Virus record (IMG/VR): IMGVR_UViG_3300020044_006256
Coordinates: 1 to 62,650 of that record
Source of the DNA: a virus
Lineage: Duplodnaviria > Caudoviricetes
Direction: 5' to 3' (one strand)
DNA length: 62,650 nt
Numbering within the stretch: the first letter of the stretch is position 1; the number at the start of each line of letters is the position of its first letter. Shown piece by piece: positions 1 through 28,933 of this stretch. The notes below the pieces were generated by a model. That model was given only the letters and a program-made list of their open reading frames with translations. It did not search any database and had not been told where the DNA came from. The translations under genes and the position numbers were made by a program.

Positions 1-121
1 TATTAAAGGTATATCGTCAGTAGTAGCAAAATAATAACCTCCACTTGGTTTATTTGGCAATTCAAATTGTGGATTTTCGCCATTTTCTATAAATGTTGCT
101 AATATAAGAGCTTCACCACCA
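1..121 (+). repeat. Exact repeat of 30213-30333
   Basis: TATTAAAGGTATATCGTCAG...CTTCACCACCA identical in both places; diverges at 122/30334. Confidence 0.95.
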
Positions 122-867
122 TCCATTGATGGTGCTTTTAATCTTATTGCTCCACTATCTAATTTTACATAACCATTAGTTTCGTCATTATCAAAATAAG
201 TAGATATTATATTTCCTTTTACTTTTATTTCATTTGTAGTTTCATTTCCGCTATCAGTTACTTGTTGAAGTGTTTGAACTTCATTTCGTAATAACTCCCA
301 AACTGCATTGTCAGTTGTTGCATCAGTACAAATATATAAATCTCCATTATCTAATAACCATCTAGAATCAACATAAAATCCTTTTGTTGTATCATCAGTT
401 GCAGATGGTGTAATATCAAAATTATAACGTACTTCACGAATAGCATTTCCATTGCCATTCATTACATATTGTCTACCAGCTTCCCACTTTAATTCGTAAC
501 CTACTCCGCAAATTTGAGCAATACCTTTTGAGCCACCATTTCCAGCATCAATAGTTCCCTCTCTTAATCTTGATGCGTTATCTAATAATACACCACCTCC
601 AGCACCAAATATTACTTCTGCATCATTAATTAACTGGATATCATTTGTAGTAGTATTTCCTAAATCAGTTACCTCTTGTAAATTTTGACTACCACCACCA
701 CCGCTAATTGTGTTTACGTTTATAGTAATCAAATTAGGAGTAATATTAAAGTCTATATTGTCAACTGCTGGGTTTAAAGTAACTACTACATTGTCAACTG
801 TAGTGGTTACTGTAATATCAATAGTCTCAATAGTAGGAAATATATTTAAGTCAATTATATCTGCCAT
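1..867 (-). CDS. Phage A tail fibre, N-terminal part (runs off the window and continues in the shared segment at 30212)
   Basis: Own translation MADIIDLNIFPTIETIDITV...GTIDAGNGGSKGIAQICGVGYELKWEAGR...TTDDIPLI, homologous to 28935..31004; absent from the ORF track because it is open at the edge. Confidence 0.85.
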   Translation of the reverse strand, partial: MADIIDLNIFPTIETIDITVTTTVDNVVVTLNPAVDNIDFNITPNLITINVNTISGGGGSQNLQEVTDLGNTTTNDIQLINDAEVIFGAGGGVLLDNASRLREGTIDAGNGGSKGIAQICGVGYELKWEAGRQYVMNGNGNAIREVRYNFDITPSATDDTTKGFYVDSRWLLDNGDLYICTDATTDNAVWELLRNEVQTLQQVTDSGNETTNEIKVKGNIISTYFDNDETNGYVKLDSGAIRLKAPSMDGGEALILATFIENGENPQFELPNKPSGGYYFATTDDIPLI

Positions 868-868
868 C

Positions 869-1204
869 TTATCTTGTTATATCGCAAAGAATTAAAAATG
901 AACCACTTAACCAAGTCTTGACTGTATTGTCAGCAAAACGTATTTCTAAATCATAAGAGTAATTCCCAGCAGCAATATCTATTATCTGCTTATTAATCTT
1001 AAATAAGCCATCTAAGGCATTAGTTATTGTAATACCAGCACTTGCTACAGATGTCAAAGATAAAGCAACCAAGCCTCCGCATTCGCTTCTTAACTGCATT
1101 CTAATTACTGCACCAGTTAAATCTATTGGCACTGTATTTAAAAGTATCTCAAATGGTACTTGGTCAAATGTATCTCCTTTTATATGTGTAAAATTGTAAC
1201 TCAT
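869..1204 (-). CDS. BppU-N-like tail fibre attachment/baseplate protein
   Basis: KGDTF...PIDLTGAVIRMQLR...YSYDLEI pattern; directly upstream of the tail fibre. Confidence 0.55.
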   Translation of the reverse strand: MSYNFTHIKGDTFDQVPFEILLNTVPIDLTGAVIRMQLRSECGGLVALSLTSVASAGITITNALDGLFKINKQIIDIAAGNYSYDLEIRFADNTVKTWLSGSFLILCDITR

Positions 1205-1296
1205 TTCTTTTTAGTTTGTTTGCTTAAATATTCCTTTACCTTTTGGATATTTTCTTTTTTTATCTTGTACGCTATAAATTTGTTTTTCTCTTTCAT
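1201..1296 (-). CDS. Small basic protein (31 aa)
   Basis: MKEKNKFIAYKIKKENIQKVKEYLSKQTKKK fills the gap with ATGA overlaps at both ends. Confidence 0.45.
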   Translation of the reverse strand: MKEKNKFIAYKIKKENIQKVKEYLSKQTKKK

Positions 1297-1796
1297 AGTA
1301 CCCAGTTACAAGGTGTGGCTTTTTGGTCTGGAAACATATCTGCGTTTCTATTGGTCCAATATTCTGGAAACATAGATGCAGCAAATACTCCCATATAGTC
1401 AATAAATCTACTTGCATAAAAGTCTGCAAATGTTCTATGCTTCTGTACTAAGATATCTAACTCCTCTTTGCTTGGTGTTTCCGAGTTTTCACTACGATGT
1501 TTAAATACTCCTCCGTTACGGATCTGGTAATTAGCAAATGGAAGATAATCAATCATAGCAAAATGTATTAACATAGGTTGCACATAGTCTTTTACTAATG
1601 CCAAATAATCTCCGCTTAGAGTATTGGTATATATTTTATCTGTGATAGTATTGTACAACTGAGTACCTAAATAATTCTGTAAATGCATCTGCTGAGCAAT
1701 CTTAATAAACTGCATAAATAAGTCTGCATCTACATTACCATTCAAGATAGTGTTTGCTTTTAAGTCTGTCTGTGTTATAAATAGTATTGTTGCCAT
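1293..1796 (-). CDS. Head-tail adaptor/connector protein
   Basis: Follows portal; orthologue of 31575..32081 (TILNGNVD vs TILGGNVD, NGGVFKH vs NGGLFKH). Confidence 0.6.
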   Translation of the reverse strand: MATILFITQTDLKANTILNGNVDADLFMQFIKIAQQMHLQNYLGTQLYNTITDKIYTNTLSGDYLALVKDYVQPMLIHFAMIDYLPFANYQIRNGGVFKHRSENSETPSKEELDILVQKHRTFADFYASRFIDYMGVFAASMFPEYWTNRNADMFPDQKATPCNWVL

Positions 1797-1799
1797 CTC

Positions 1800-3698
1800 T
1801 TATTTGTTTTTTGCTATCCATTCTGGATGATGTCCATTGTATGGCATATCTATTGGTGCTACTACTGCATCATTTAAACCCGCTGGTGTTGGATTGTATC
1901 CATCTATACTTGCAACCTCTTCACTAGATGACAAAGATTTGTCTGCATATGGTGTACCATCTGTTTTAGTCTTCAATCTGTATAGGTTTTCATTCCAAAT
2001 ATGCCCACAATTTACTCCGCCTTTAAATCTGAATAAAGAATAGTTTTCTCCATTATGTCCAAATTCGTTATTTACACCGGTAAACGAAGCCATATCTATA
2101 TCCTCCTTGCGATATACTACTCCAGATGCAGTTCTTGCCATCATATTAACGCAAAATGACCTAGAATTGCTACTGCTATATTTCTCTGCATATTCATATC
2201 TAACTTTATAAAGATTCTCATCTAAATAACTTGCTTCGCTTGGCTTACTTTTAATAAAACCACCAAGTTTTGTCTCCTCTTTTGCAGTAATATTTGATTT
2301 TGCCCACTCTTTTATCTCACTATTTCCCTCGTCAAACTCTCTTTTGTCTACTAGTTCCCATTCATCTGTCACTACTTCCCCATTAAAAGAGTTAATATCA
2401 AAGCATTCGTGGTCTTCACTTAATGTTTGTTGTGGTACTACTTGCTGAATCGATGCTTTTAAGCCTACCAGAGACCTAATTTCGTCAGCAGTCATACTCT
2501 CAAGTACCTTATTTGCTACTAGTGGACTTAATGAATTAATACCATCTATAATTGTAGTTGATTTTTCAGAGATAGTCAACTCATTTGTGGCATCTAATGG
2601 TTGTAAAGTTTTGAAATAAAGGTTTAAATTGATATCATTATACGCTAGTATAGTATCAAAGTACTTTATTAGTAAATTTTGAAATGGTTTTATTACTGTA
2701 TTCTGCATTAAAATAGTTGCAGTCTGTAACTCATCTGCATTATTACCAAATCCGCTATTATCTTTGATGCCTAATAGCATTGGCGAGATTACTCGATGTG
2801 CTACCATTATCTTTCTCATAGACTCATCACTCAAAAATTGGTATTGGTTATGTGCATCCGATAATTGTACTGGAGTAATAGTTGCACCATAGTCATTAGA
2901 GTCATTAAAAGATAAAATGAATCTACCAGCGTTTGAAGTTCCAGAAAACTTTTGGGTTATACTTCTCTCAATATCTCTTTGCTCATCCTCTGTAGGAGTT
3001 CCATTGTTGAAATTAATTAACATACTAGGAGCAAGACCATTCATAATATTGTTAAGATGGTAATTGCTTATTTCCTCCTCTAATTCGCAGTACTGCAATC
3101 CTCCTTGCCAATCTGGTGGTGAGTAATAATAAAATCCAGTTTTGTATGGTTTTATGTATAGTATCTCTTCTTGCTCATTACTTGTTCCAAATGCTGGAAT
3201 TGGTGTTGGTGGATATTGTCTAGTTACCTTTGTCCAATCGTCAGAATAAAAATAAAATTCAACATCTCCATCCTCATTGCATTTTCCGCTTCTTAAAGTT
3301 TCAACTGGAAAATGGTTTACCTCTACAATTCTGCTTCTATCAATAGAATAAACAACTTGAATAGCACATTGTCCCATTGCTTTTAAATCATAGCACAATC
3401 TCTCTGTTGTATTGTCATCAAATAATAACATTGCTTGTGCATAGTCTTCTGGCTTAATTTGTGCATCTGTAGAATCTAAACCTTGCCCAAATATCATTTG
3501 ACTAATTCCGTTTATAATAGCATTGTTGGTTGGACTACCATTAATTCTGTCTTGAATGTACCCAAAATAATTATTATCCTCTCCATATGAAATCCATTCT
3601 TGGTTTCTTACTTCTAATATTTTTGGACTCGTGTATGTAGCTAAACTGACTACACCAATTCCAGTATTTTTAGGTTTTATTTCTGCTTTTTTTCTCAT
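1800..3698 (-). CDS. Portal protein with C-terminal Cys/His (MuF-like) extension
   Basis: Portal-like core (GSPTNNAII, AHRVISPMLLGIKD, GFGNNADEL); C-terminal SRSFC...KGGVNCGHIW; orthologue of 32086..33708. Confidence 0.8.
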   Translation of the reverse strand: MRKKAEIKPKNTGIGVVSLATYTSPKILEVRNQEWISYGEDNNYFGYIQDRINGSPTNNAIINGISQMIFGQGLDSTDAQIKPEDYAQAMLLFDDNTTERLCYDLKAMGQCAIQVVYSIDRSRIVEVNHFPVETLRSGKCNEDGDVEFYFYSDDWTKVTRQYPPTPIPAFGTSNEQEEILYIKPYKTGFYYYSPPDWQGGLQYCELEEEISNYHLNNIMNGLAPSMLINFNNGTPTEDEQRDIERSITQKFSGTSNAGRFILSFNDSNDYGATITPVQLSDAHNQYQFLSDESMRKIMVAHRVISPMLLGIKDNSGFGNNADELQTATILMQNTVIKPFQNLLIKYFDTILAYNDINLNLYFKTLQPLDATNELTISEKSTTIIDGINSLSPLVANKVLESMTADEIRSLVGLKASIQQVVPQQTLSEDHECFDINSFNGEVVTDEWELVDKREFDEGNSEIKEWAKSNITAKEETKLGGFIKSKPSEASYLDENLYKVRYEYAEKYSSSNSRSFCVNMMARTASGVVYRKEDIDMASFTGVNNEFGHNGENYSLFRFKGGVNCGHIWNENLYRLKTKTDGTPYADKSLSSSEEVASIDGYNPTPAGLNDAVVAPIDMPYNGHHPEWIAKNK

Positions 3699-3699
3699 A

Positions 3700-4053
3700 T
3701 TATTGGATAACGATATAATCGTTGTTATAAGTTTCTATTGCTAGATATTTATTATTGTTTATTGAGTAGTTTTCAATGCTCTGGTTTGTAGAAAATAGTC
3801 TGTCCTTATACAATATATCACTAGATGCATTTAGTACGCTTAATTCAAAGAATCCAGCCTCGTATAAACAGTCTAATTCAGCATCTATGTAGACTAAATC
3901 AAATACATTTGGATATACTTGTGTTGGTGTATAGTCAAGAGATACATTTGTTTGCTCATCTCTTACTCTTAAAGTTAAGATATCGCCATCAATATACCCT
4001 CTTGGAATAGTTATAAAAGTCTGTGTTGTGTTATCTTGGTTTACTACTGTCAT
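3700..4053 (-). CDS. Virion structural protein (head closure-like)
   Basis: Start moved to ATG 4053 (MTVVNQD) to match B orthologue MNVVNPN and to lie downstream of the late promoter. Confidence 0.6.
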   Translation of the reverse strand: MTVVNQDNTTQTFITIPRGYIDGDILTLRVRDEQTNVSLDYTPTQVYPNVFDLVYIDAELDCLYEAGFFELSVLNASSDILYKDRLFSTNQSIENYSINNNKYLAIETYNNDYIVIQ

Positions 4054-4058
4054 AGATA

Positions 4059-4085
4059 TATAACGCATTAATTTATTTTTTTGCA
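4059..4085 (-). promoter_or_regulatory. Phage A late promoter TGCAAA-N14-CGTTATA
   Basis: Same motif and spacing at 6304-6330 and 7099-7125. Confidence 0.65.
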
Positions 4086-4088
4086 AAT

Positions 4089-4120
4089 AAAAAAAGGGAC
4101 TGAAAAAATCAATCCCTTTC
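4089..4120 (-). terminator. Intrinsic terminator after tail tube gene
   Basis: AAAGGGATTGA-loop-TCAGTCCCTTT followed by T run on the minus strand. Confidence 0.7.
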
Positions 4121-4151
4121 TATACCAAAGATACCTCTATAGCTGCTTACC

Positions 4152-4676
4152 TTATGGTGTTATCTGAGTTGGTGATGCGTGTGCAGTCACTACTCCAGCA
4201 GATACAAATGGTGCAAGAATAGGCTCTTCGCCAGTAATTGTCAAAGTATATCCATTCATATCTCCTAATGCAGTACCAGTTGATACGCTTCCATTGATAT
4301 TACACCCTCTTGTCAAACCTACTGCAAAGTAATTTCCATTGTTATCCTCAACAAATACGTGTGGTCTTTGAGAAATCATCTTTTGCAATTCAACTTGTGT
4401 TGCAACATCTATTTTTGTTAATACGGCAGTAACAGTCTGACCATAAAAAGTAGTACCATTCTCATCACTAGATGTAATAGTTTGCTCCAAATTATTTCCT
4501 CCTTTTACATCGTATTTATACCAGTTTGTACCAGAGCCACTAACCGCAGTTAATGTTCCAGCAGTTATTGTCAATGTACCTAGTGTACCATAGTCAGCAA
4601 AGTAAACTGTTCTAATCCCACCGACTACGTCCTTACACGGTAACTTCCGGCCAGTAGCCATTAAGCAAGTACTCAT
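4152..4676 (-). CDS. Major tail (tube) protein-like
   Basis: CKDVVGGI...NGTTFY.QT...VEDNNG...GDMNGYTLT; follows capsid gene; orthologue of 34091..34603. Confidence 0.6.
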   Translation of the reverse strand: MSTCLMATGRKLPCKDVVGGIRTVYFADYGTLGTLTITAGTLTAVSGSGTNWYKYDVKGGNNLEQTITSSDENGTTFYGQTVTAVLTKIDVATQVELQKMISQRPHVFVEDNNGNYFAVGLTRGCNINGSVSTGTALGDMNGYTLTITGEEPILAPFVSAGVVTAHASPTQITP

Positions 4677-4737
4677 ATTTTTTTTATTTAAAAGTTAATA
4701 AATAGCCTCCCCTATTACAGAGAGGCATTTAATTTAA

Positions 4738-5649
4738 TTATGCTATTCCGTAAGTAACAGAGTCAGCACCAATTCCTACTTGGATACCTCTTGTAAATCT
4801 TGCGATAAATCTAACATTTTTGCTTCCGTCGATGTCTGCCATATCAATCGTTTTGATTACGTTAGCATCATCAGCTAAACCGAATCCAACAAATAAGTTA
4901 GAAATTTCAGCAGCAACCATTGTGTTAGCTGGTAAACCATTTGCAACAAATACAGTAACACCATCAAATGTCAACTCTCCACCATTGTACCAAGTTGTTC
5001 CGTTAGCACCAACCCCAGCATTTGAAGTTGCAGCAACACTAAATCCACCTAATGCTCTTACGTATGCTTTTGCTACGTTTTGAGATACATAGATTCTCAA
5101 GTCTTCTGAGCCATATAATGCAGCTGGAATTCCATCTACTACTCTTCCCATCTCTGCGATTACGTTTGCAGATGTAATAGTCAAAGGAGTAGCAATTACA
5201 GTTGCTCCATCAGTTTTAAGCAATTTACCTAAACCATTTGTAGCATTCCACAAGAAAGTTTCAGTATCTAATGCGATGTCTTTCAACATTTTTGCAATAA
5301 AGAAATCAGAGAAAGTTGTAGGTAAGTTATCGTAAGCAGAATATCCCATTGCTACTGCTTCCCAATCTTGTTGGAATGGAGTTTTACAAAGTTGTAAGTT
5401 TACTTGTTTTTCTGCAACTGTAAGAACTTTGTCAGATAAAGTAACTACACCAGCATCAGTAAAATCACAAGTTGCATCTGCAACAATTCCAGAGTTTACT
5501 AATTTTTTGATGTTAGTTTTGTATTTCACATTTGGAATTAAAGTAACTCCATTGTTTGCGATTGTGTTCGCACTTAATACCGCAGCAGCGATATATTTAC
5601 CAGCGAATTCACCAGCGTAGTTTGTTGTAATTGTAGGTTGATTAGCCAT
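4738..5649 (-). CDS. Major capsid protein
   Basis: 303 aa following protease and scaffold; homologous to 34669..35685; hairpin downstream at ~4704-4726. Confidence 0.8.
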   Translation of the reverse strand: MANQPTITTNYAGEFAGKYIAAAVLSANTIANNGVTLIPNVKYKTNIKKLVNSGIVADATCDFTDAGVVTLSDKVLTVAEKQVNLQLCKTPFQQDWEAVAMGYSAYDNLPTTFSDFFIAKMLKDIALDTETFLWNATNGLGKLLKTDGATVIATPLTITSANVIAEMGRVVDGIPAALYGSEDLRIYVSQNVAKAYVRALGGFSVAATSNAGVGANGTTWYNGGELTFDGVTVFVANGLPANTMVAAEISNLFVGFGLADDANVIKTIDMADIDGSKNVRFIARFTRGIQVGIGADSVTYGIA

Positions 5650-5681
5650 TTTTTATTTTTTTAAGTTTTATTTTTAATTAA

Positions 5682-6278
5682 TTATTTTGACAATGCTGCC
5701 ATAATTCTTGCTTCAGTTCCAGATAAATTTTTTCCAGTATTAGTTTTTCCTAAATTTACTTTTGCCTCTGCTGGTTTGTGTGTTAATGGTTTTTTAGCAG
5801 TAACGCTTGAAAGAGTTTCTTTCATCTCTGTTTGTCCTCCCATACAAGCATCAATTTTGGCTTGTAGTTCATCCATTTTTGGTTGTAGTGTTTCCATTAC
5901 TTTCAATAGAATTTCCTCTAATGTAGTTGGTACTGCTTCCAATTCAACTTCTGTCTCTGGTGCAACCTCTTCTGTTGCTTCCTCTACAACTTCTGCTTCT
6001 GGCTCTGCTGACATTTCAGTTTCCCCAACTTCTGCAACTGCTGCAGCGATTTCTCCAATAGTACCGATTTCATACACCTCAAGAGTATTGCCATCAGCCA
6101 TCAAGTAACTTCCAATTTCTAATGGTTGTCTGTTATCTCCATCAATAGCAAAAATAGGTTGCCCTACTTCAAAACTATCTGCTTCGATTACAGTACCATT
6201 ATCCAGAGTCTGTTGCTCTAACTTCACATTTCTATGAAGTAACGCATTTATGCGTGATAAGATTTCTGTGTTTTTCAT
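5682..6278 (-). CDS. Capsid scaffold protein
   Basis: Acidic, PLEIGSYLMADG motif; matches the C-terminal half of B 35701..36801. Confidence 0.65.
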   Translation of the reverse strand: MKNTEILSRINALLHRNVKLEQQTLDNGTVIEADSFEVGQPIFAIDGDNRQPLEIGSYLMADGNTLEVYEIGTIGEIAAAVAEVGETEMSAEPEAEVVEEATEEVAPETEVELEAVPTTLEEILLKVMETLQPKMDELQAKIDACMGGQTEMKETLSSVTAKKPLTHKPAEAKVNLGKTNTGKNLSGTEARIMAALSK

Positions 6279-6303
6279 ATTTATAATTTATTAATTCTTA
6301 ACA

Positions 6304-6330
6304 TATAACGAATGTCAAATTTATTTTGCA
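6304..6330 (-). promoter_or_regulatory. Phage A late promoter TGCAAA-N14-CGTTATA
   Basis: Repeated motif upstream of scaffold and capsid genes. Confidence 0.65.
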
Positions 6331-6336
6331 TTTTCA

Positions 6337-6486
6337 TTATGCTCTTTTATATATAGGTCCAATTCCTTGTGCTGGTAATGAGCCATCGCAACATTTTCTA
6401 GAATATGTATTGTCTGGACATAAACAACCTCTTTTGTCTGTCTTTGGACTTGTTCTGCTAGGTGTTCTAAAATCTTTATTTGCCAT
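6337..6486 (-). CDS. Small Cys-rich protein (49 aa)
   Basis: Own translation MANKDFRTPSRTSPKTDKRGCLCPDNTYSRKCCDGSLPAQGIGPIYKRA; fills the protease-scaffold gap. Confidence 0.7.
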   Translation of the reverse strand: MANKDFRTPSRTSPKTDKRGCLCPDNTYSRKCCDGSLPAQGIGPIYKRA

Positions 6487-7093
6487 AATTTAATAAAGTT
6501 TGTATTTCTAATAAATCTAATCCAGCTAATATTTCACTTTCTGTATCATCTATTTTTGATAGTGGAGTCTTTGCCTTATCTGCAAAATAACCCTCAATAC
6601 TAAATCCTTTTACTTTTCCAGTTTTAATAAAGTCATTCCAGATTACATCGTTATTTACTTTAATTGTACCCATCCAAGTTCCTACTGGCACATTCAAATT
6701 ATACAGATTGCTTTTGTCCTTTTCCATATCCTCAACAATCCAACTCTCTACCATAGTCAATCCAGTAACTGACTCCATATGTTCAAAAGTTGCATTTGAT
6801 TGGTTACCATTTTGAAAAAATAACTCCATACATTTTCTTATAGTGTCTTGGCTAAAATAAATGTAATACTCTCCCTCTTGCTCATCTCTTCTGTAGATAG
6901 GTTTATCTGGTACAAGCATTGCACCCATTATGATTTTCTTTTCCTTGTCTACTTCTGCAAATTTGTACTCTTTTGGTTGCTCATCTTTTAATGCAATCCA
7001 ATTCTCTTCAATGGCTGGATTCTCCACAATAGATATTGCATCTATTCCAGAAAGTTCCATTGTGTCATCAATTATAAGTTCGATTATTTTCAT
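6476..7093 (-). CDS. Prohead protease (XkdF-like)
   Basis: AISIVENPAIE, PDKPIYR, TFEH, VESW, GTW, KGFSIEG motifs. Confidence 0.8.
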   Translation of the reverse strand: MKIIELIIDDTMELSGIDAISIVENPAIEENWIALKDEQPKEYKFAEVDKEKKIIMGAMLVPDKPIYRRDEQEGEYYIYFSQDTIRKCMELFFQNGNQSNATFEHMESVTGLTMVESWIVEDMEKDKSNLYNLNVPVGTWMGTIKVNNDVIWNDFIKTGKVKGFSIEGYFADKAKTPLSKIDDTESEILAGLDLLEIQTLLNYGK

Positions 7094-7098
7094 TTCTT

Positions 7099-7125
7099 TA
7101 TAACGTGTTTAATTAATTATTTGCA
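7099..7125 (-). promoter_or_regulatory. Phage A late promoter TGCAAA-N14-CGTTATA
   Basis: Repeated motif immediately upstream of the protease ATG. Confidence 0.65.
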
Positions 7126-7127
7126 TT

Positions 7128-16171: not shown

Positions 16172-16327
16172 TTAATAGTAATTAAAAATAAATCCTTTGA
16201 CTGTTTTCTGTTTTCCTTTGCAGCATCTTAGTATTAGGTCTCTTTTAATATTTAGCCTTTTACTTGCATCGGTTACTGATGCGAATACATTTATTTTTTT
16301 ATCCTCTTGTAATTGTACTACTCTCAT
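16172..16327 (-). CDS. Stand-alone NUMOD1-type HTH protein (51 aa)
   Basis: Own translation MRVVQLQEDKKINVFASVTDASKRLNIKRDLILRCCKGKQKTVKGFIFNYY. Confidence 0.6.
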   Translation of the reverse strand: MRVVQLQEDKKINVFASVTDASKRLNIKRDLILRCCKGKQKTVKGFIFNYY

Positions 16328-17528
16328 ATTTTATACCATTTCGTTTTACTTCTATTGATGGGTCTAGTTTAATCATTCTATCTACTATTACTTGGCAGTA
16401 TTTAGGATCTAGTTCCATTCCGTAGCATTTGCGTTTTAGTTGGTGTGATGCTACCATTGTTGAGCCACTGCCAAGAAACAAATCAAGTATTAAATCATTT
16501 GCTTTTGAACTAACCTTTTGATAAAAACTACATATTTCAATAGTTTTTTGTGTTGGGTGAATTGATTTAGCGTTATGTTCAGTTGATTTAATTTCATTTA
16601 ATGCTAAGTAAGTATCAAGAAACCCATCACCACTATATCTGCTATCATTCTTTGTACTTTCTGAAACTTCTAATATTCCACTATTAAAACCTTTCTTGCC
16701 TTTATTAGAAAAATAACATACTTCATAATTATTTTTAAAATATCCGCTTGGACTTGGCTTGTTTTCGTGTGTTATTCTTTGAATTAATATATTGGTTTGT
16801 TTAAAATATTCTTTTATTTTTGAAGCACATTCTGTTATAAATTGTATTCCAAAATAAATATAAATATGACTATCTTCTTTTGAGAATAATTCAATATTTG
16901 GTAAACACTCATTAAAAACTTCTAAATCTTCATCTCCTAAAATACTCCCGTTTGTATTCTTAATTGCTACACCATAAGGAGGGTCTGTAAATACCATATC
17001 AGCTTTCTCTCCATTCATTAACTTTGCAACTGTATCGCTACAAGTACTATCTCCACACAATAATCTATGTTCGCCTATCTCAAACAAGTCTCCCAATACA
17101 ATATCAGTTTCAATACCTCCGTCTGGCACTTCAAAGTCATCCTCTTCGGCTTCTAGTACTTCGTTATAATCTAAAGGTAAATCTAGTCCCCAGTCTTTTA
17201 AATCGTCAGCATCCCATTCATTTGCTAATATATCCCAATCCCATTCGCCACCACTTACATTGTCTTTAATTAAAAACTCTTTTTGTTGCTCTTCGGTTAG
17301 GTCTGTTATAATTATAGGCACTTCTTTTAGTCCAGCTTCTTTACAAGCCTTATATCTCATATTTCCTCCTAGTATAATCATATCCTTATTTACTACTATT
17401 GGGCGAATGTTTAGCATCTCTGGAAAGTCTTTGACTGACTGAACTAATTTTTTAAATTTATCATCCTTTATTAATCTTGGATTATTTGGATTGACTTTTA
17501 CCTCTGAAATTTTTACTGTTTTTTGCAT
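16299..17528 (-). CDS. ParB-N domain fused to N4/N6 DNA methyltransferase
   Basis: NPNNPR/GGNMR ParB part; HRLLCGDST, TDPPY, HPTQK, DLFLGSGST, GMELDPKYC. Confidence 0.9.
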   Translation of the reverse strand: MQKTVKISEVKVNPNNPRLIKDDKFKKLVQSVKDFPEMLNIRPIVVNKDMIILGGNMRYKACKEAGLKEVPIIITDLTEEQQKEFLIKDNVSGGEWDWDILANEWDADDLKDWGLDLPLDYNEVLEAEEDDFEVPDGGIETDIVLGDLFEIGEHRLLCGDSTCSDTVAKLMNGEKADMVFTDPPYGVAIKNTNGSILGDEDLEVFNECLPNIELFSKEDSHIYIYFGIQFITECASKIKEYFKQTNILIQRITHENKPSPSGYFKNNYEVCYFSNKGKKGFNSGILEVSESTKNDSRYSGDGFLDTYLALNEIKSTEHNAKSIHPTQKTIEICSFYQKVSSKANDLILDLFLGSGSTMVASHQLKRKCYGMELDPKYCQVIVDRMIKLDPSIEVKRNGIKYESSTITRG

Positions 17529-18625: not shown

Positions 18626-18635
18626 TTGTTTTGTT

Positions 18636-20480: not shown

Positions 20481-20481
20481 T

Positions 20482-21393: not shown

Positions 21394-21455
21394 TTGTTTT
21401 AGTGTTTTAAATTATCGGCAGCAAGTTTAATTTACTGACGATTTATAGTTAATAT

Positions 21456-21809
21456 TTAGAATGGCAATCCATCATCCTCCTCATCTACAAAAGTAGCAAC
21501 ATTTATTGGATGTCTATCTGGCATAAATGATTCAGCAGATTTCTCTTTCTCTCCTTTACTTATGTTCCATCCTTGAATGTTTGCATAGTACTTCCCTTTC
21601 CATTCTGTTCCTCTTAAATTGATTCCTATTTTTACAATGTCTCCTATCTGGTAGTTGTCTAATAGTGCAACTTTATCTTGCGTGAATTCAACTGGAATAG
21701 TCTGAGGATATTGCTCATCTGTTTTGACGACTGCTAGTCTCTTTTTAAATCCTTTTGCTCCGATTGTTTCTGTTTCTCCTATAACAATTATTGTTCCTTG
21801 TACTTCCAT
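21456..21809 (-). CDS. DUF3127 SSB-like protein
   Basis: GFKKR, QYPQ, INLRG.EW.GKYY..IQGW, acidic DDGLPF tail. Confidence 0.8.
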   Translation of the reverse strand: MEVQGTIIVIGETETIGAKGFKKRLAVVKTDEQYPQTIPVEFTQDKVALLDNYQIGDIVKIGINLRGTEWKGKYYANIQGWNISKGEKEKSAESFMPDRHPINVATFVDEEDDGLPF

Positions 21810-21810
21810 C

Positions 21811-22419
21811 TTATTTTGCTTTTAAAAGTTGTTTTCTTACTTCTGTATCTAATCTGTATTTTTTCTCTATTAATTCTATTTCTCCTCCTCCAGCGATATA
21901 ATCTACTGCACCTTTAAATGCTGGTGTATCAAATTCTAGAAATGGTTTATCTAATTCTTTTGGTACTTCTACAACTTTCACTGTTTTATCGTGGTTATTA
22001 GTTGCATCTGCATCGGCAGTATCATCAATCAAAAGCAAGTTACCTAATGCATATTTTTTAGCATAGCTGGATGCACTTCCAAACTGTTGTGGTACTTGCA
22101 TTCCTTTTTGGTTTAAATCTATTCCAACTATTGCTGAACAGTCAATGCTTTTTTCTGTTTCACAATCCCAGATTGTAGCAACCGATGTCATAACTGGTGG
22201 ATTAGCATTTATTAATTGCTCGTTAATAGTGAAGTAAACTCCATATTTTTCATTCATTGGTTTTAATCCCTCCAAAATGTCCTCTGCACTTCTAAAGTTA
22301 TACTTACCGAATGAATTAAATCTGCTCTTTTTAGCTTTGAATTCATACTGGATTCTAGATAATTTTTCTCCAATACTTAATGGAATTTCTAATGCTGGTA
22401 ATTCAATTTTTGTTGCCAT
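21811..22419 (-). CDS. erf: ERF-family ssDNA annealing protein
   Basis: NSFGKYNFRSAEDIL, QQFGSASSYAKKYAL...DDTADAD. Confidence 0.85.
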   Translation of the reverse strand: MATKIELPALEIPLSIGEKLSRIQYEFKAKKSRFNSFGKYNFRSAEDILEGLKPMNEKYGVYFTINEQLINANPPVMTSVATIWDCETEKSIDCSAIVGIDLNQKGMQVPQQFGSASSYAKKYALGNLLLIDDTADADATNNHDKTVKVVEVPKELDKPFLEFDTPAFKGAVDYIAGGGEIELIEKKYRLDTEVRKQLLKAK

Positions 22420-22420
22420 C

Positions 22421-22639
22421 TTAATTTGTTTTTAGTGAGTAGGTATTACTACTATTGTTAAATTGATAAAATCCTTGTCCATAATTATTGCAAACTATCT
22501 CGGCATCGTGGACCTCAATACCCATAGTTAATCTTTCATTCTCATCCATTAATCTTGCATTCTCAATTCTTAATGCTTCAATACTCTGGCTCATATAGTT
22601 TACCAGTTCTTTTGTACTCCAAGTTTCATTGTTTTTCAT
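22421..22639 (-). CDS. Hypothetical coiled-coil protein
   Basis: ORF preceded by ACTAAAACAA leader motif. Confidence 0.55.
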   Translation of the reverse strand: MKNNETWSTKELVNYMSQSIEALRIENARLMDENERLTMGIEVHDAEIVCNNYGQGFYQFNNSSNTYSLKTN

Positions 22640-22655
22640 TTTATATTTGTTTTAG

Positions 22656-22907
22656 TTAGTATTCTGTGTATTCGTGATATTCGTCAAAGATAACTTTATA
22701 TTCCAAATTCCTATGTATCATCTGCCATTTCTGTTTCATTGCTTGTGCTTCATTTTCAGTAAGTAAAACTGTATGTGGGTATCCCTCTTCTAATAGTACC
22801 CATCTGTTTTCCTCCTCTTCGTCTATAAACTCACAATGCTCTTTACAGTCTCCACATATTCCAGTATCTTCCATCCATTCAGATGCTCCGCAGCAGTTAC
22901 TTTCCAT
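22656..22907 (-). CDS. Small zinc-finger-like protein
   Basis: SNCCGA...ICGDCKEHCEF. Confidence 0.6.
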   Translation of the reverse strand: MESNCCGASEWMEDTGICGDCKEHCEFIDEEEENRWVLLEEGYPHTVLLTENEAQAMKQKWQMIHRNLEYKVIFDEYHEYTEY

Positions 22908-23067
22908 ATTTTTTATCTTTAAAGGTTTTTATACTTATCAATGCAGTCTTTTTATCGCTTTTAATAGGCTTAATATGAAAGGAAATGTCTATGTGGGTAA
23001 GTTCTTTATCTTTCTTAATTAGGCTTATCATTTCGCTATAAATAGCGTTCCAGTCTTCAATAGTCAT
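22897..23067 (-). CDS. Hypothetical protein (56 aa)
   Basis: Own translation MTIEDWNAIYSEMISLIKK...; tiles between neighbours. Confidence 0.5.
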   Translation of the reverse strand: MTIEDWNAIYSEMISLIKKDKELTHIDISFHIKPIKSDKKTALISIKTFKDKKYGK

Positions 23068-23224
23068 TTGGCATCTCTTTTATACTTTCTATTCTTTTAA
23101 CTGGTCTAAACTTGTCTAAAAATATACTCAATGCAGTTTGTAAATCATTTGCTATTACTAACTCTTCCACATCGGTGGCACAATCATTATTCTCAATCCA
23201 GTAACTTATTAAATACTTTCTCAT
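23057..23224 (-). CDS. Hypothetical protein (55 aa)
   Basis: Own translation MRKYLISYWIENNDCATDVEE...; tiles between neighbours. Confidence 0.5.
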   Translation of the reverse strand: MRKYLISYWIENNDCATDVEELVIANDLQTALSIFLDKFRPVKRIESIKEMPNDY

Positions 23225-23225
23225 C

Positions 23226-23456
23226 TTAATAGTTTTTTTGCAGTGTTATACATATTTTTTTATACTTGTACTCTAGCATCAAATCATTGTCTGCATATAA
23301 GTAATCAAATTTTTCAAATCCTTTCAAGAGTAAATAGTCTCTTGTATCTTGGGTATAGTCTCCCAATATTCTAATATCGTTATTTGTAATTGATACAGAA
23401 AAAAACAAATCCATATCTAAATTTAATGCTACTAGTAATCCTAATTGTTTGTTCAT
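23226..23456 (-). CDS. Hypothetical early protein
   Basis: ORF preceded by CACTAAAACAA. Confidence 0.55.
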   Translation of the reverse strand: MNKQLGLLVALNLDMDLFFSVSITNNDIRILGDYTQDTRDYLLLKGFEKFDYLYADNDLMLEYKYKKICITLQKNY

Positions 23457-23593
23457 TTTGTTTTAGTGTTTAGTGATTAATAAAAAAATCTAGTTAAAAA
23501 ATATACTGCAATAATTCCTATTGCGTAAACTTGGTACTTTTGTTTTGATAAAAATGTTTTCATTTGATATTTGTTTTAGTTTGTTATCGAGGA

Positions 23594-23636
23594 CAAATAT
23601 ATAAACATTTTGTTAATAAAAAAACATTTTGCTAAT
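23594..23636 (-). promoter_or_regulatory. Bacteroidota sigma70-type early promoter with tandem repeat operator
   Basis: -7 element TATATTTG at 23594-23601; direct repeat AAACATTTTG(T/C)TAAT at 23603 and 23622. Confidence 0.6.
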
Positions 23637-23644
23637 TATTTTTA

Positions 23645-23717
23645 AAAAAAAAATCCCATCCATTTACTGGCGGGACTTTTCTCGTTCACTAAAACAATTA
23701 TTATGATAACAAAATTC
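23645..23717 (-). ncRNA. Candidate anti-translation-start sRNA of phage A
   Basis: -7 element TAGATTTG at 23721-23728; contains UUGUUUUAGUG complementary to early-gene leaders; ends in GTCCCGCCA/TGGATGGGAT hairpin plus T9. Confidence 0.5.
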
Positions 23718-23733
23718 CATCAAATCTAAGTAT

Positions 23734-24285
23734 TTATTTTAACTTAACCAACTCTTTTATTAAAATATCGTATTTTAATTTCTTTGCTATTAACTCATCT
23801 TTTGTAAACTTGTAGTTGCGTGTTTGGTTTGCTTTCTCTTCTATCTGGTCTGCGTATTCAATTCCGTATCTTGTAATCAATCCAGATCTATAATTTAATT
23901 CGTTTCCTCCTAGAAATCTGTTGCACTTTCTGCATTGCTTATGACAGTTTTTTTCGTCAAATATAACTCCGCTATATATCTCTGCTTTCTTATAATGTCC
24001 ACCATCCCAAAGTTCTGTATTTTCTACACCACAAGATATGCAAGGTTGTTTATCGTCACGCATTCTAATGTACTTCTGAAATGATTTCTTTGCCTCTGCT
24101 TCATATTGTCCCAAAGTTTTTAGTTTGTCTCTTAAAATGGCTTTTTCTTGCTTCCACTCTCTTTGGTCCTTTTGTTGTTTTAGATTCTTGGAATGTTCAA
24201 TAGCACATTTATAATTGCATACTGCTTGAGCAAACTGTACTGGAGTAAATTTCTCTTGGCAAACTTTACATTTCTTATCTTTCAT
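23734..24285 (-). CDS. ninG: NinG/Rap-family recombination endonuclease
   Basis: KKCKVC, YIRMRD..PCISCG, WDGGHY, NCHKQCRKCN..L.GN. Confidence 0.85.
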   Translation of the reverse strand: MKDKKCKVCQEKFTPVQFAQAVCNYKCAIEHSKNLKQQKDQREWKQEKAILRDKLKTLGQYEAEAKKSFQKYIRMRDDKQPCISCGVENTELWDGGHYKKAEIYSGVIFDEKNCHKQCRKCNRFLGGNELNYRSGLITRYGIEYADQIEEKANQTRNYKFTKDELIAKKLKYDILIKELVKLK

Positions 24286-24493
24286 AATCTCTCATCATAG
24301 GTGATGGAATTAATTGTATAATATCTTTCATTAACTCTGCATTAAAATAATAAACTGGAATGCCTTTATATATTTCTATTCCATTATCCCAAACTTTAGA
24401 GCAACAAAAAGCATAATTATCTAAACTATACCTAGCACCTTGCTTAAGTAATATTCCGTCTAATATTTCTATAAATTCTTTGTTATCTTTCAT
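24275..24493 (-). CDS. Hypothetical protein
   Basis: ORF overlapping the ninG start. Confidence 0.45.
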   Translation of the reverse strand: MKDNKEFIEILDGILLKQGARYSLDNYAFCCSKVWDNGIEIYKGIPVYYFNAELMKDIIQLIPSPMMRDYER

Positions 24494-24538
24494 TTTATTA
24501 TATTGGCATTTTGTCCCAAATTTTGCCGATAATAGGGA

Positions 24539-25021
24539 CTAAATAATTAATCCTTTATATTTTCTCCATAAGTAGTAGGCTGGAATTATAAGAAGTAACC
24601 ACCAGAGAGATAAAAAACTAAACTGCTCTTTGTCTATTTGTTTTACATCTACTTTAATATCTTTTGCAGTTTCTTGCTTTGTGCTTGTTTTAACTGCTTT
24701 TTGCTCTGTTTTAGCCTCTGTAATAGTTTTATCAAGTATACTGTTGTTTTTAGTATTTCTGTGCTTTAAAACTGCATTTTTAAATACAACCTCTCCAAAC
24801 TTTGAACTCTTGGTAGTATCAACTGGTGTAACTGTAAACTCATTAGTTTGCAAATCGAAAACTATTTTAGTATTTTCATTGGTGCTGGTAGTTGTTTTAC
24901 TGCTATCAACTACTGCAACATCTATTTTTGTTGTCTCTTTTACTTCGGTTGCAGATTTGTTTACTTTCCTAGCACCACAAGATGCCAATGCTAATGCCAG
25001 AATTAAAATTGTTTGTTTCAT
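24539..25021 (-). CDS. Lipoprotein with C-terminal TM helix (unimolecular spanin-like)
   Basis: MKQTILILALALASC lipobox plus C-terminal LWWLLLIIPAYYLW; orthologue of 57479..57997. Confidence 0.65.
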   Translation of the reverse strand: MKQTILILALALASCGARKVNKSATEVKETTKIDVAVVDSSKTTTSTNENTKIVFDLQTNEFTVTPVDTTKSSKFGEVVFKNAVLKHRNTKNNSILDKTITEAKTEQKAVKTSTKQETAKDIKVDVKQIDKEQFSFLSLWWLLLIIPAYYLWRKYKGLII

Positions 25022-25038
25022 TTTAGGTTGTTTATTGG

Positions 25039-25266
25039 TTATAATATTATAGTTATTTTTTGACTTGCACAACTCATTTTGTGTATTCCATTATCTTGAT
25101 GGCAGTATCTGCATTTTCTATTAGATACAAACATATCGCAGTTGTCTGCATCATCCTCTCTATTAAAGTTGTGAAAGTATTGCCACATTCCATTTTCAGC
25201 AGTAAACCTATAGCAATAAACTTTTGATGGACAATGTATATCTTGACATTTAGCTATATCACTCAT
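25039..25266 (-). CDS. Small Cys-rich protein
   Basis: DIAKC...CPSK..CYRFTA; orthologue of 58098..58424. Confidence 0.65.
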   Translation of the reverse strand: MSDIAKCQDIHCPSKVYCYRFTAENGMWQYFHNFNREDDADNCDMFVSNRKCRYCHQDNGIHKMSCASQKITIIL

Positions 25267-25475
25267 TTTATTTTTTCATTTATAAGTATTAATTTTTGAA
25301 CTAAATTGTCATAATCTTCTTTTACCCATTGTTGTATGTTAGTTGATGAATAAAAATATAATTTACAAAAATCTGGCGAATGTTCTCCTCCATCTTCTAT
25401 TGCTCTAATATCATTTAAATCAATTAGTATTTTTTTATTTTCATTTGTTGTAAATTCTATAAATTTCTGTTTCAT
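25263..25475 (-). CDS. Hypothetical protein
   Basis: ORF in operon context. Confidence 0.5.
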   Translation of the reverse strand: MKQKFIEFTTNENKKILIDLNDIRAIEDGGEHSPDFCKLYFYSSTNIQQWVKEDYDNLVQKLILINEKIK

Positions 25476-25739
25476 AATATATTTAGTTATTAATTAATAC
25501 TACTTTGAAGTTATTAGTTGGTGAGTAAACAGAGGAAGCCTAAGGGAATAACTGCGTTAGCGTTAATCCAGATATTAATATTTTTCATTTAATACCTTTA
25601 TCATCTGTTTGATTCTACTTAGTTAGCTACTAGCAGTTTCGTTTACAGTTGCACCATTAGAAACCCATTTTAGTGCTTTAAGAATAAGTTAAATTGTTGT
25701 ATTTCCCCATAAATACTTATCCCGATTTGTTTAGGTAAC

Positions 25740-25826
25740 AAAAAACCCTATCAAGGGATGCAGACTTGGTAGGGTGTAATTTTGTAATTATTCAACACCT
25801 AAATCAATAGGTGCATCCTAATTGAT
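25740..25826 (-). ncRNA. Candidate structured leader/attenuator RNA with loop-loop complementarity
   Basis: -7 TATCTTTG at 25831-25838; hairpin carrying GGATGCA; terminator whose loop carries TGCATCC. Confidence 0.55.
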
Positions 25827-25878
25827 GAGCCAAAGATAAAAATATAATTTAATAAAAAAAACTTTTAAGTAATTATTT

Positions 25879-26715
25879 TTATAACTCCATTGGAATTACT
25901 ATTGGCAATGTTCCATTATTTAAAAGTACACCACATCCGATTGCTGGTTTTTTAAAATTGCGGCCATAGGCCATAGCGTAAGTTTTATTGTTTACTCCGC
26001 AACCTACTTGCATTCCAAATATTCTAAAATTCTTGCCTACTATATACTCTACATATAAATCCGAATGCAGATGTCCTTGTATTTGGCTCTGGAGTTCTTT
26101 TTTCATTTTAGCTCTTGCAGTTCCTCCCTCTCCGTGATTAATATTTACATTATATAAATCTAGGCTTTCAACAAATTCCCAATTCGGGACATTTAATACA
26201 TCTCTGTACTCTTTAATCCATCTTTTAGATACTCCTCCAGAGAATGCCTTGCGATAAACTAGTCTGTCGTGGTTTCCAATTATTACAGTTGCCTTTGGAA
26301 ATGCTTTGTAAAACTTTTGAAGTTCTCTAATTGCCAAATCCAATTCGTCTCCAGCACTCATTCCATCTGGGTCAGATTCGTGGTAACTTGAATAGTGATT
26401 GTCAAGCAAATCTCCGATAAAAATTACAGTACCACATTTAAACTTTTTTTGTTGCTCAAGGCAAAATTCTAAATAAGATTGTAAATTAAATGGACAATGT
26501 AAATCTCCAATTATCAAAATGTTGTTTGGATTTCCAAATTGGTATGGCTCTAAATCTTTTAAATTTTTCTTTCTAACTTTACCAATCTGCTTCCGTAAAT
26601 TTTCTATTTCTGAAAAATCTCCATCGGGTAAAATCTGTTTTGCTATCTCTGTATTGTTAAAATTGAACTGAATTAAATCTAAAATCTGACTGTCTAAATG
26701 TTGGTATTTTAACAT
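25879..26715 (-). CDS. Calcineurin-like metallophosphoesterase with N-terminal HTH-like region
   Basis: GDLH, GDLLD, GNHD, HG, GHLH motifs; -7 TAGATTTG at 26740-26747. Confidence 0.85.
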   Translation of the reverse strand: MLKYQHLDSQILDLIQFNFNNTEIAKQILPDGDFSEIENLRKQIGKVRKKNLKDLEPYQFGNPNNILIIGDLHCPFNLQSYLEFCLEQQKKFKCGTVIFIGDLLDNHYSSYHESDPDGMSAGDELDLAIRELQKFYKAFPKATVIIGNHDRLVYRKAFSGGVSKRWIKEYRDVLNVPNWEFVESLDLYNVNINHGEGGTARAKMKKELQSQIQGHLHSDLYVEYIVGKNFRIFGMQVGCGVNNKTYAMAYGRNFKKPAIGCGVLLNNGTLPIVIPMEL

Positions 26716-27016
26716 AATTTGTTTTTAGTTATTTTTAAGCAAATCTATACTAATAAAAAGCTAAAATCGATTTTAAAGTACTTTTTATGAACAATATATT
26801 AATAAACATATATATACATTACTTTTCTTTTATCTTTAAACTAGAGAAAAATCCCTTATTTTACTAGGGTTTGCAGAGTACCAATTTTCTTACTAATTTT
26901 ATTCTTGAAATAAACTAAATCTAAAATCAATTTAAGGCACATTTAAGCAATTATAATAGTATAAACATACAAATATAGTTAGAACGTATTTTAGTGCCTT
27001 AAATCGACTGTAAATG

Positions 27017-27232
27017 CTATCTACTCATCTTGTGAGCAAACATTTTAATTATGGTAGTTGGCTTTATTATCTTGCAAAGTAATCTTAAAAAAAAACCAGC
27101 ATTAGTTGTATGTGGACTTTCCGCATAAGTTTGTGCTGCATCATCTAATGCAGATTTGATTGGCTCTGGAATTTTATCCAAGTCAGATAAATCAATATTT
27201 CGGTTAAAAATTCTCATAGTGAGTTTTGCCAT
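27017..27232 (-). CDS. Hypothetical lysis-cassette protein
   Basis: Follows endolysin; start probably ATG ~27217. Confidence 0.45.
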   Translation of the reverse strand: MAKLTMRIFNRNIDLSDLDKIPEPIKSALDDAAQTYAESPHTTNAGFFLRLLCKIIKPTTIIKMFAHKMSR

Positions 27233-27656
27233 TTACCTTAACTGCTTTTAAAGTCTGTTGCTTATTTGCACCCGAGTATGAAACGTGTACCCAGTCTGGA
27301 TTCTTTTTATCTCCAAACTCCCAAATCAGCTGGTCATATTTCAAGTTGTCTTTTATCCAATAAAATATCTGAGCATTGTTGACCTTGTCTCCTTTCATAT
27401 CAATATCGATTGCCTCTCCTCTGCAATGTTGGCTTGTGATACTTCCTCTTATGGCTTGGTTAAGGTTTATTATTCGATATCCAGAAGAGATATGTATAGG
27501 CACATTAAAATGCTCACGTACTGGCTCAAATACTTTCTCAGCCAATCTAGTTAGATTAGCAATCTGTCCTTGTGTTGGTGCGTTAGTAATACCTAATTTG
27601 ATTGCAGTCTCTGAGTATGTTAATTCCTCAAGAGTTAAATGTTTACTTATTTTCAT
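27204..27656 (-). CDS. Endolysin, peptidase M15A family
   Basis: ISSGYR, SQHCRGEAID, DQLIWEF, WVHVSY. Confidence 0.9.
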   Translation of the reverse strand: MKISKHLTLEELTYSETAIKLGITNAPTQGQIANLTRLAEKVFEPVREHFNVPIHISSGYRIINLNQAIRGSITSQHCRGEAIDIDMKGDKVNNAQIFYWIKDNLKYDQLIWEFGDKKNPDWVHVSYSGANKQQTLKAVKVNGKTHYENF

Positions 27657-27831
27657 TTTGGTCTTTTTTTAATAGTTTAAAAATTTGTATTGCAGTATAT
27701 AGAATTGAAAAAGTTAATAGTATTAGTTTCAATGCAGATTCAATGTTACTGAAAGAGATTACCATAGATACAGTATTCAATAGGTAGATTTTTAGGGATT
27801 GGTTAATCATTGGATTATATTTAGATGTCAT
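27643..27831 (-). CDS. Holin-like small membrane protein
   Basis: Two hydrophobic segments, basic C-terminus, upstream of endolysin. Confidence 0.55.
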   Translation of the reverse strand: MTSKYNPMINQSLKIYLLNTVSMVISFSNIESALKLILLTFSILYTAIQIFKLLKKDQNENK

Positions 27832-27835
27832 TATT

Positions 27836-28177
27836 TTATTTTATATACGTTATTAAATCCTTTATTATAAGGCATAAAGAGATGCCACAAGTAACTAAAA
27901 TTAATAATAGTATATTTGGTAACCACAAACAAAAAAGACCTCCCAAAAGGCTTCCTATTGCAGTTCTTATGACATCATTATAATCAAAGTAAGACTTCAT
28001 CAAATAAGATTGTACCCATTCCCAAAAGAAACCAGCAAATCCTCCAATAATTAAAGATATTAAAGGCACTCCGATAATCTTGCTATAAGTATTAAACTCT
28101 GCAAAGTTTGTTACTGAGCCAATTAAATACATAATTGTAAACCCGATAAAAATATGGTAATAGTCTCTTTTATTCAT
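27836..28177 (-). CDS. Multi-TM membrane protein
   Basis: WEW.Q...FD.ND motif; orthologue of 60860..61204. Confidence 0.65.
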   Translation of the reverse strand: MNKRDYYHIFIGFTIMYLIGSVTNFAEFNTYSKIIGVPLISLIIGGFAGFFWEWVQSYLMKSYFDYNDVIRTAIGSLLGGLFCLWLPNILLLILVTCGISLCLIIKDLITYIK

Positions 28178-28502
28178 AGCTAAAATTGTTGTTTATTGCT
28201 TTGATGCAATGGTCCTTTTCTATCTTGTCTAATATCCACACTAATATTGCACCAATTAGCTTTAAAGTTCTATCTCTTTGATTCTTTCCTAGTGCAGATG
28301 ACAATGTCTCTCTATCATTCCCAAATTGATAGCCATCCTCTTCAATCAAAACCTTATTCCACATTGCTCGAAATTCTCTATTGGCAAACTTATCGATGTT
28401 TATACCAGTAGACTTGAAATAACCGCTTTTGTTCTTAACAAAAAAGAAGTTTATAATCGTTAAAGGTAATAGTAATATGTAAGCAATAATAAAAAGAATC
28501 AT
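28170..28502 (-). CDS. Conserved phage membrane-anchored protein
   Basis: IDKFANREF, FG..ETLSSALGKN, HCIKAI; near-identical to 61899..62213. Confidence 0.7.
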   Translation of the reverse strand: MILFIIAYILLLPLTIINFFFVKNKSGYFKSTGINIDKFANREFRAMWNKVLIEEDGYQFGNDRETLSSALGKNQRDRTLKLIGAILVWILDKIEKDHCIKAINNNFSYE

Positions 28503-28933
28503 AATTGTATTTCATTTGCTTGTATAAATATCTCATCTACTTGTGCATCTGTCAATCCTAGTACATTTTGTAATAGTTGTACTGTTTGGCTACTTCTTTC
28601 TACTGTTGTTCCGTAGTTCCAGATGTATAATGCTCCAGTTTTAGTTGGCTCAGATAAACTATTTAATGCGTTTTCTATTGCTTCCTCTAATCCACCAAGT
28701 TTTAAAATTACTCTTACTCTCCAAAGTTGTACCTCTTGTGGTATTTCTATACTGTCGGCTATTTCTTGACTTGTGGCATTTTCGTAAAATATTCTAGTTT
28801 CAAAGTTGAAATAAGGATTTACAAAATTTTCTGTTAAAAGTTCATCAATAGCCAATTCATTAGATTGTAAATTTTCAACCTCTAAAACCGCATATAATAA
28901 TTTACCGCTATTTTTATCAATAATTGTTTTCAT
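28499..28933 (-). CDS. Tail fibre-associated (assembly chaperone-like) protein
   Basis: Directly after tail fibre; LGLTDAQVDEIFIQA C-terminus; N-terminal third identical to 62210..62644. Confidence 0.6.
   Translation of the reverse strand: MKTIIDKNSGKLLYAVLEVENLQSNELAIDELLTENFVNPYFNFETRIFYENATSQEIADSIEIPQEVQLWRVRVILKLGGLEEAIENALNSLSEPTKTGALYIWNYGTTVERSSQTVQLLQNVLGLTDAQVDEIFIQANEIQL

Follow-up and report, generated by a model that had tools for sequence, protein, structure and literature searches.

The classic work on restriction-site avoidance reportedly concerns palindromic Type II sites in coliphages and in phages of Bacillus and Staphylococcus. Asymmetric sites of 4 bp are recognised by enzymes such as AciI (CCGC), MnlI (CCTC) and Sth132I (CCCG). 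The motifs of Type III systems, whose cleavage requires two inversely oriented sites, are 5-7 bp long, as are those of bacteriophage exclusion (BREX) systems and of defence island systems associated with restriction-modification (DISARM); phage T7 is said to show an orientation bias of its Type III sites. The AciI system itself, as outlined in PMC4081073, comprises a nuclease, a double methylase (M1~M2) and a control protein. This work deals with a word of the same asymmetric kind, CAGG and its complement CCTG (hereafter CAGG/CCTG), in the IMG/VR virus record IMGVR_UViG_3300020044_006256, the whole 62,650 nucleotides of which were analysed (the window). The word is completely absent from the phage half at 1-28775, referred to as A, and present throughout the phage half after it, referred to as B, and its absence recurs among the relatives of A.

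The missing word CAGG/CCTG

Exact counting gives zero CAGG and zero CCTG in 1-28775, just as the original prediction had claimed from inspection of the letters, versus 50 CAGG and 83 CCTG in 28776-62650. Expectations for 1-28775 are 81.9, 103.4 and 83.1 sites under Markov models of order 0, 1 and 2, respectively, and 77.1 sites (standard deviation 6.6, minimum 62) over 200 synonymous-codon shuffles, which preserve A's proteins and codon usage; the Poisson probability of finding none where 77 are expected is about 3e-34. The comparison with Markov and codon-shuffled expectations, which the prediction had proposed as its own check, thus finds A depleted (0 versus 77-103), and the purge goes beyond what codon or codon-pair usage could produce. 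The word is missing from each codon context of A, as none of its 66 CAG codons is followed by G, and the corresponding counts are 0/47 for CCT before G, 0/24 for CTG after C and 0/20 for AGG after C; the 3351 bases of A outside open reading frames (ORFs) are equally free of sites. In B all these contexts and all three frames contain sites, 123 of them inside ORFs and five outside. Under the standard genetic code a synonymous escape from CAGG and from CCTG exists in every frame, so that a full purge is possible without any change of protein.

What replaced the word can be seen by alignment. All six homologous sites of B carry another word in A. In 11 relatives, whose background divergence from A is 19-27%, 167 CAGG/CCTG sites could be aligned with A; of the differences in A at these sites, 107 are silent within the word, 52 alter the protein, seven lie outside ORFs and one is a gap, the commonest replacements being CCTG to CCAG, CAGG to CAAG and CAGG to CTGG. 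The purge therefore acts on DNA and not on protein: it is context-specific, largely silent, and extends to all frames and to non-coding DNA. CCAG/CTGG, which had been noticed as abundant, stands at 187 copies in A (100 CCAG and 87 CTGG), in excess of the 122 +/- 7 expected from the codon shuffles.

Relatives were collected, and a tree built, with the portal protein of A (1800-3698, minus strand), which is 40% identical to that of B (32086-33708). Scanning IMG/VR by portal yielded 80 loci, of which the 56 of at least 6 kb were assessed for word counts, taking as purged those with at most 12% of the expected CAGG/CCTG. By this definition 21 of the 56 relatives of A are purged. Five whole or near-whole ones show 1/81, 1/70, 1/82, 0/76 and 13/83 sites (observed/expected), i.e., four near-complete genomes of about 30 kb hold 0-1 sites where 70-82 are expected. 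Other relatives are at or above expectation, such as L012 (85% portal identity; 43/35), or intermediate, such as L006 (26/50) and L013 (17/54). On the portal tree (a quick IQ-TREE search over 79 rows, namely A, B and 77 of the 80 loci, with L034, L066 and L067 left out for portal pieces shorter than 450 amino acids) the purged state is clustered, no shuffle in 500 being as low, and 23 purged members fall in A's well-supported clade of 37 rows. It nonetheless needs at least nine changes, and purged and unpurged phages are found at 85-88% portal identity. Purged genomes remain clean over 20-30% DNA divergence, which argues that selection maintained the purge, and the same purge is seen in independent IMG/VR contigs from many metagenomes. 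Strong selection against an asymmetric 4-mer, as was originally proposed, is thus borne out both by the silent, context-specific avoidance in A and by its recurrence.

The clade of B (50 loci) behaves otherwise. None of its 38 members of at least 6 kb is purged of CAGG/CCTG, the lowest being L174 with 19/65, and many of them, including B, are short of CCAG/CTGG instead. This sister word is purged in place of CAGG/CCTG in some relatives too (L038, 0/32; L049-L053, 3-7 against 22-46 expected; and L068-L076, with L074 at 1/40), and these carry CAGG in excess.

Further words are purged in this phage group. Among 59 sequences of at least 6 kb, the palindrome CATG is purged in 49, GATC in 35 and CTAG in 13, CGCG being purged as well, and some relatives also lack the short asymmetric words CCGC, CCCG, GACC and CCTTC. 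Short words of this type are what restriction enzymes recognise. Restriction footprints vary within the group in the manner of a mosaic and, with so many short-word purges in the same genomes, restriction pressure on it is pervasive. The individual counts (observed/expected) are, for A, CATG 0/91, GATC 6/79, GCGC 0/14, AGCT 36/92, CCTTC 1/22, ACAGC 5/35 and CACTG 4/27, and for B (30334-62650) CATG 2/86, GATC 14/114, CGCG 0/33, CTAAG 1/35 and GAATTC 0/12. Elsewhere we find CCGC at 2/55 in G005 and 0/32 in L023, GACC at 0/16-19 in L050, L052 and L053, and AGCT at 0/26 in L026 and 0/47 in L155. An unusually short purged word appears in L036 (4954 bp), where CAG/CTG stands at 8 against 53 expected and CTC/GAG at 8 against 60.

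Two genomes in one record

In IMG/VR the record is classified as linear, with a completeness of 100%. The A half and the B half nevertheless each have a portal gene, a large terminase gene and lysis genes of their own, with portal and terminase proteins only 33-40% identical between the two. The contig ends are repeats: 1-121 is letter-identical to 30213-30333 and 62487-62650 to 28776-28939, i.e., to the last 121 and the first 164 bases of a segment at 28776-30333 (segment R, 1558 bp). R is assigned here to both genomes on account of these repeated borders, its inner part standing once in the record, and the DNA flanking it is about 80% identical between A and B. With R added, A would be a circle of 30,212 bp (122-30333) and B one of 33,711 bp (28776-62486); complete relatives of A with terminal repeats measure 30,732 and 31,558 bp. 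Since the ends repeat the borders of R, and each half amounts to a complete gene set at the size normal for the family, the record is, as far as can be read from its letters, an assembly join of two genomes through R (a figure-of-eight graph) and not one virus; the assembler would have passed from A to B through this shared segment. The two may exist physically as two circles or as one cointegrate. Four runs of lake-water reads matched 27500-31500 only with relatives of parts of it at 90-99%, and no read record spans the stretch. The ‘junction’ of the original prediction is thus an assembly join and no biological boundary between neighbouring prophages, and a record scored as a single complete virus really holds two genomes joined via a tail-fibre segment.

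The DNA unique to A (122-28775, 28,654 bp) has 0 CAGG, 0 CCTG, 0 CATG, 0 GCGC and 6 GATC, and that unique to B (30334-62486, 32,153 bp) has 132 CAGG/CCTG, where 102-104 are expected, and 58 CCAG/CTGG, where 104 are. R itself has one CCTG, one GCGC and five CCAG, word densities that assign its origin clearly to neither A nor B. Its CCTG (29878-29881, plus strand) is the only one in the full circle of A, and the site-free stretch really runs from 1 to 29877, with the first site at 29878 followed by others at 30523, 30688, 30754, 31053, 31205 and 31361. The six positions listed at the outset as examples were right for 30523, 30688 and 31053 and off by one for 30753, 31204 and 31360, and the ten or so sites placed in the first 2 kb past the junction are 11 by count (30334-32333).

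R includes the first 158 bases of the ORF at 28499-28933. It also takes in some 466 codons at the C-terminal end of gene X (28935-31004, minus strand; 689 amino acids), which is the last large gene ahead of the lysis genes. X matched no Pfam or PHROG family; its residues 336-481 resemble the annotated tail fiber protein of Pseudomonas phage Rollin (33% identity, E 7e-12). The N-terminal third of X is specific to B and its C-terminal two thirds lie within R, A's own version of the N-terminal third being the ORF at 1-867. Low as the identity of their portals and terminases is, A and B thus have the distal part of a tail-fibre-like gene, two thirds of it, in common. The letter-identical borders of R suggest a very recent exchange of a host-recognition module, and the shared segment probably points to a host cell that A and B had recently in common. 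Three small ORFs of A (27836-28933), lying left of R and upstream of the lysis genes, find their best match, or the only one, in B (71-86% at the amino acid level) and not among A's own close relatives. By its similarity pattern this module appears to be an older tract of exchange with B-like phages, later cleared of CAGG sites: in its aligned parts, three of three sites of B are replaced in A.

The agent of the purge

We consider it rather probable that a restriction-type host defence with the asymmetric site CAGG/CCTG, for which one site would be enough, drives the purge in A's clade. This clade would consist of non-integrating freshwater phages of about 30 kb, with hosts that are probably Flavobacteriales-type bacteria, long exposed to a DNA-cutting defence recognising the word in either orientation. 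AciI and MnlI, with their short asymmetric sites, would be the models for such a restriction enzyme. Carrying a site would cost fitness, and with a silent change available to remove any site, selection could have cleared them all, mainly by turning CCT into CCA and CAG into CAA before a G, which would also account for the excess of CCAG/CTGG in A. B would be a temperate distant relative, from a clade without CAGG pressure and with a milder shortage of CCAG/CTGG. It has the only tyrosine integrase in the window (46759-47913, minus strand) and a repressor-like ORF (48514-48885), which together indicate a temperate phage; no tyrosine integrase was found in A or in any of its five whole relatives.

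We infer the host restriction enzyme as the agent, and likewise the sufficiency of a single site. Both orientations of the word are lost, and their ratio in 11 partly purged relatives (74:24) is no more biased than in 44 unpurged ones (1510:430; Fisher p 0.62), so that an enzyme needing one site fits. Of the idea that a host restriction or other DNA-targeting defence with a CAGG site lies behind the absence, selection at the DNA level has stood, whereas the search for its agent found no host, cognate enzyme or methylome.

Several results weigh against this reading. The first is the enzyme. To our knowledge, based on literature searches, there is no described enzyme with a bare CAGG/CCTG site. 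The literature gave no enzyme or methylation motif CAGG/CCTG, only longer motifs, namely TCCAGG, which contains CAGG and is given in PMC3526280 for the Type III methylase M.GmeII, and CCAGT, from a bioRxiv preprint. CAGG and CCTG are absent from the main texts of two broad surveys (PMC4081073 and PMC4752239), and the search turned up no paper joining restriction-site avoidance with Flavobacterium phages. The second is the host, none having been identified for A. None of 37 Flavobacteriaceae genome samples (15-20 kb) is poor in CAGG, the lowest observed-to-expected ratio being 0.82, nor is CAGG scarce in the distant prophage relatives from two Flavobacteriaceae genomes. The third is B, which shares the tail-fibre segment with A, and probably one host, yet has 132 sites and no detected methylase (six-frame searches with PF00145 and PF01555, and 30 ORFs of at least 100 amino acids against PHROGs). 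An extra assumption is therefore needed, which may be a strain-variable enzyme or host methylation protecting B during lysogeny.

The searches for a host bear on the same question. Portal relatives, at no more than 42% identity, occur in three of 401 Flavobacteriaceae genomes and in three of 401 Flavobacteriales genomes, and a scan of genome contigs gave two distant matches, one in a Flavobacteriaceae metagenome-assembled genome and one in a Bacteroidetes one. Megablast of 12 kb of A and of B against a phage collection gave no match. By protein, the nearest cultured phages are the Nonlabens phages P12024S/L (32.7% portal identity), which infect a marine flavobacterium. Tracing the host through the attachment site of B (46350-48560 against 401 genomes) gave only short AT-rich matches, six of them with no transfer RNA gene, and these were put down to chance. 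Several of the 37 genome samples are themselves strongly poor in CATG, GATC or CTAG: in the 20-kb Flavobacteriaceae samples L195, L204, L210, L211 and L202 these words stand (observed/expected) at 2/50 for CATG, 3/43, 5/42 and 6/60 for GATC, and 2/25, 2/26 and 5/49 for CTAG.

The different host histories first proposed for A and B are thus only partly upheld. The clade contrast (21/56 purged versus 0/38) supports different exposure histories, whereas the shared R points to a recent common host cell. A strain-variable enzyme, or methylation of the temperate B, would reconcile the two.

It is also possible, if rather doubtful, that the system is of an altogether undescribed kind, i.e., a DNA-targeting system that reads bare CAGG/CCTG, alongside CCAG/CTGG as a sister specificity, and that is widespread in freshwater microbes and strips whole phage clades of the word. 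Such a system may be a new enzyme family, or may be borne on strain-variable mobile elements; in the second case one would understand why A and B have a host receptor module in common and still differ completely in their sites.

Other host defences with short asymmetric motifs, such as Type III, methylation-guided BREX/DISARM-like or phosphorothioate-based systems, seem unlikely drivers. The purged word is asymmetric, as their motifs are, and that of M.GmeII puts CAGG inside a Type III motif in print; a Type III system, however, could let one orientation persist, whereas both are lost in A, and the bias in the partly purged relatives does not exceed the coding-strand baseline. Removal of a bare 4-mer in every flanking context is also atypical of BREX/DISARM and Type III. 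We have accordingly rejected Type III avoidance as the cause, both orientations being at zero in A and the orientation ratio of its relatives unchanged (p 0.62).

Less likely still, the purged phages could carry a CAGG-cutting nuclease of their own (e.g., one destroying host DNA), against which the absence of sites would protect them. The purge is indeed linked to A's clade and not to B's, and many ORFs of A have no known family. However, six-frame searches of the window found no C5-methylase (PF00145) and no HNH nuclease (PF01844), and no restriction-nuclease family was found among the scanned ORFs of A. A single DNA methylase turned up in the window, a fusion of ParB_N with an N6_N4 DNA methyltransferase in A (16299-17528, minus strand). 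Its methylase domain is missing from four of four purged whole relatives, three of which (G002, G003 and G005) keep only ParB_N, and one (G004) nothing; not being conserved in other purged genomes, this domain has no tie to the purge. The matrix of gene content gave no informative candidate gene tracking the purged state: the few ORFs of A common to all four purged genomes and missing from the unpurged G408 adjoin the missing terminase region of the latter, a gap that probably reflects a contig only 78% complete. The at least nine changes of state among close relatives would, moreover, need repeated gain and loss of the nuclease gene. A virus-borne restriction-modification system is likewise not supported, as no pair of methylase and nuclease was found in the window and gene content does not track the purge. 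The stand-alone ParB_N protein of G002, G003, G005 and G412 is 81-91% identical to that of A over residues 1-123.

Quite improbable is that CAGG/CCTG is the phage's own signal for packaging, replication or regulation, with stray copies selected against. Exactly one CCTG is kept in each of A, G002, G003 and G005, as such a signal would have it, but these single sites stand at non-homologous places (in the tail-fibre gene of A, beside the ParB gene of G002 and in a structural gene of G005), G004 has none, and close relatives carrying 43-139 sites do not differ in gene set as far as their sequence goes. Artefact or neutral bias, be it sequencing or assembly error, mutational bias or codon or codon-pair preference, hardly deserves credence, for although the record is itself an assembly join, the purge recurs in independent contigs of many metagenomes, codon shuffles never fall below 62 sites, all contexts, frames and non-ORF DNA are empty, and B is unaffected in the same contig.

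A restriction-type defence of the host therefore stays our preferred reading. The phenomenon is of a known kind, i.e., restriction-site avoidance, and what is new is a specificity for which no described enzyme was found. The purge predicts that a restriction specificity CAGG/CCTG (with CCAG/CTGG as the alternative) acts on common uncultured lake phages, and it tells both enzyme discovery and the methylome binning of lake metagenomes what to look for. More generally, word purges in phage genomes could serve as a culture-free readout of host defences, and the purged or unpurged state as a simple marker for sorting lake phages by their exposure history. Phages that exchange host-recognition modules can, as A and B suggest, bear opposite restriction footprints.

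Comparison with described systems

Avoidance of CCWGG (EcoRII/Dcm-type) or CCNGG (ScrFI-type) resembles the present case in that both CCAGG and CCTGG are absent from A (0 copies each). Unlike in such avoidance, CCTG/CAGG is lost at any flank, including CCTG outside the pentamer, and CCAG/CTGG outside the pentamer is in excess. We therefore rejected it as the cause and regard the loss of the pentamers as a by-product, in agreement with the earlier argument that neither avoidance would suffice to remove all CCTG.

With Type III systems A shares the asymmetry of the motif, and one known Type III motif contains CAGG. The differences, also with respect to phage T7, are the lack of orientation bias, both orientations being fully lost in A, and a motif of 4 bp instead of 5-6.

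The purge is like classic restriction-site avoidance in being a complete or near-complete and silent loss of a short word, next to purges of CATG, GATC, CTAG and CGCG. It differs from it in the asymmetry and 4-bp length of the word and in the lack of a cognate enzyme among those found, as well as in being polymorphic within one clade, where it alternates with a purge of CCAG/CTGG.

A further comparison is with AciI, MnlI and Sth132I. No enzyme of this type with the site CAGG/CCTG turned up in the literature. Even so, enzymes of this type cut at a single asymmetric 4-bp site and would thus select against both orientations of it, just as in A, and the sites of AciI and Sth132I, CCGC and CCCG, are themselves purged in relatives of A.

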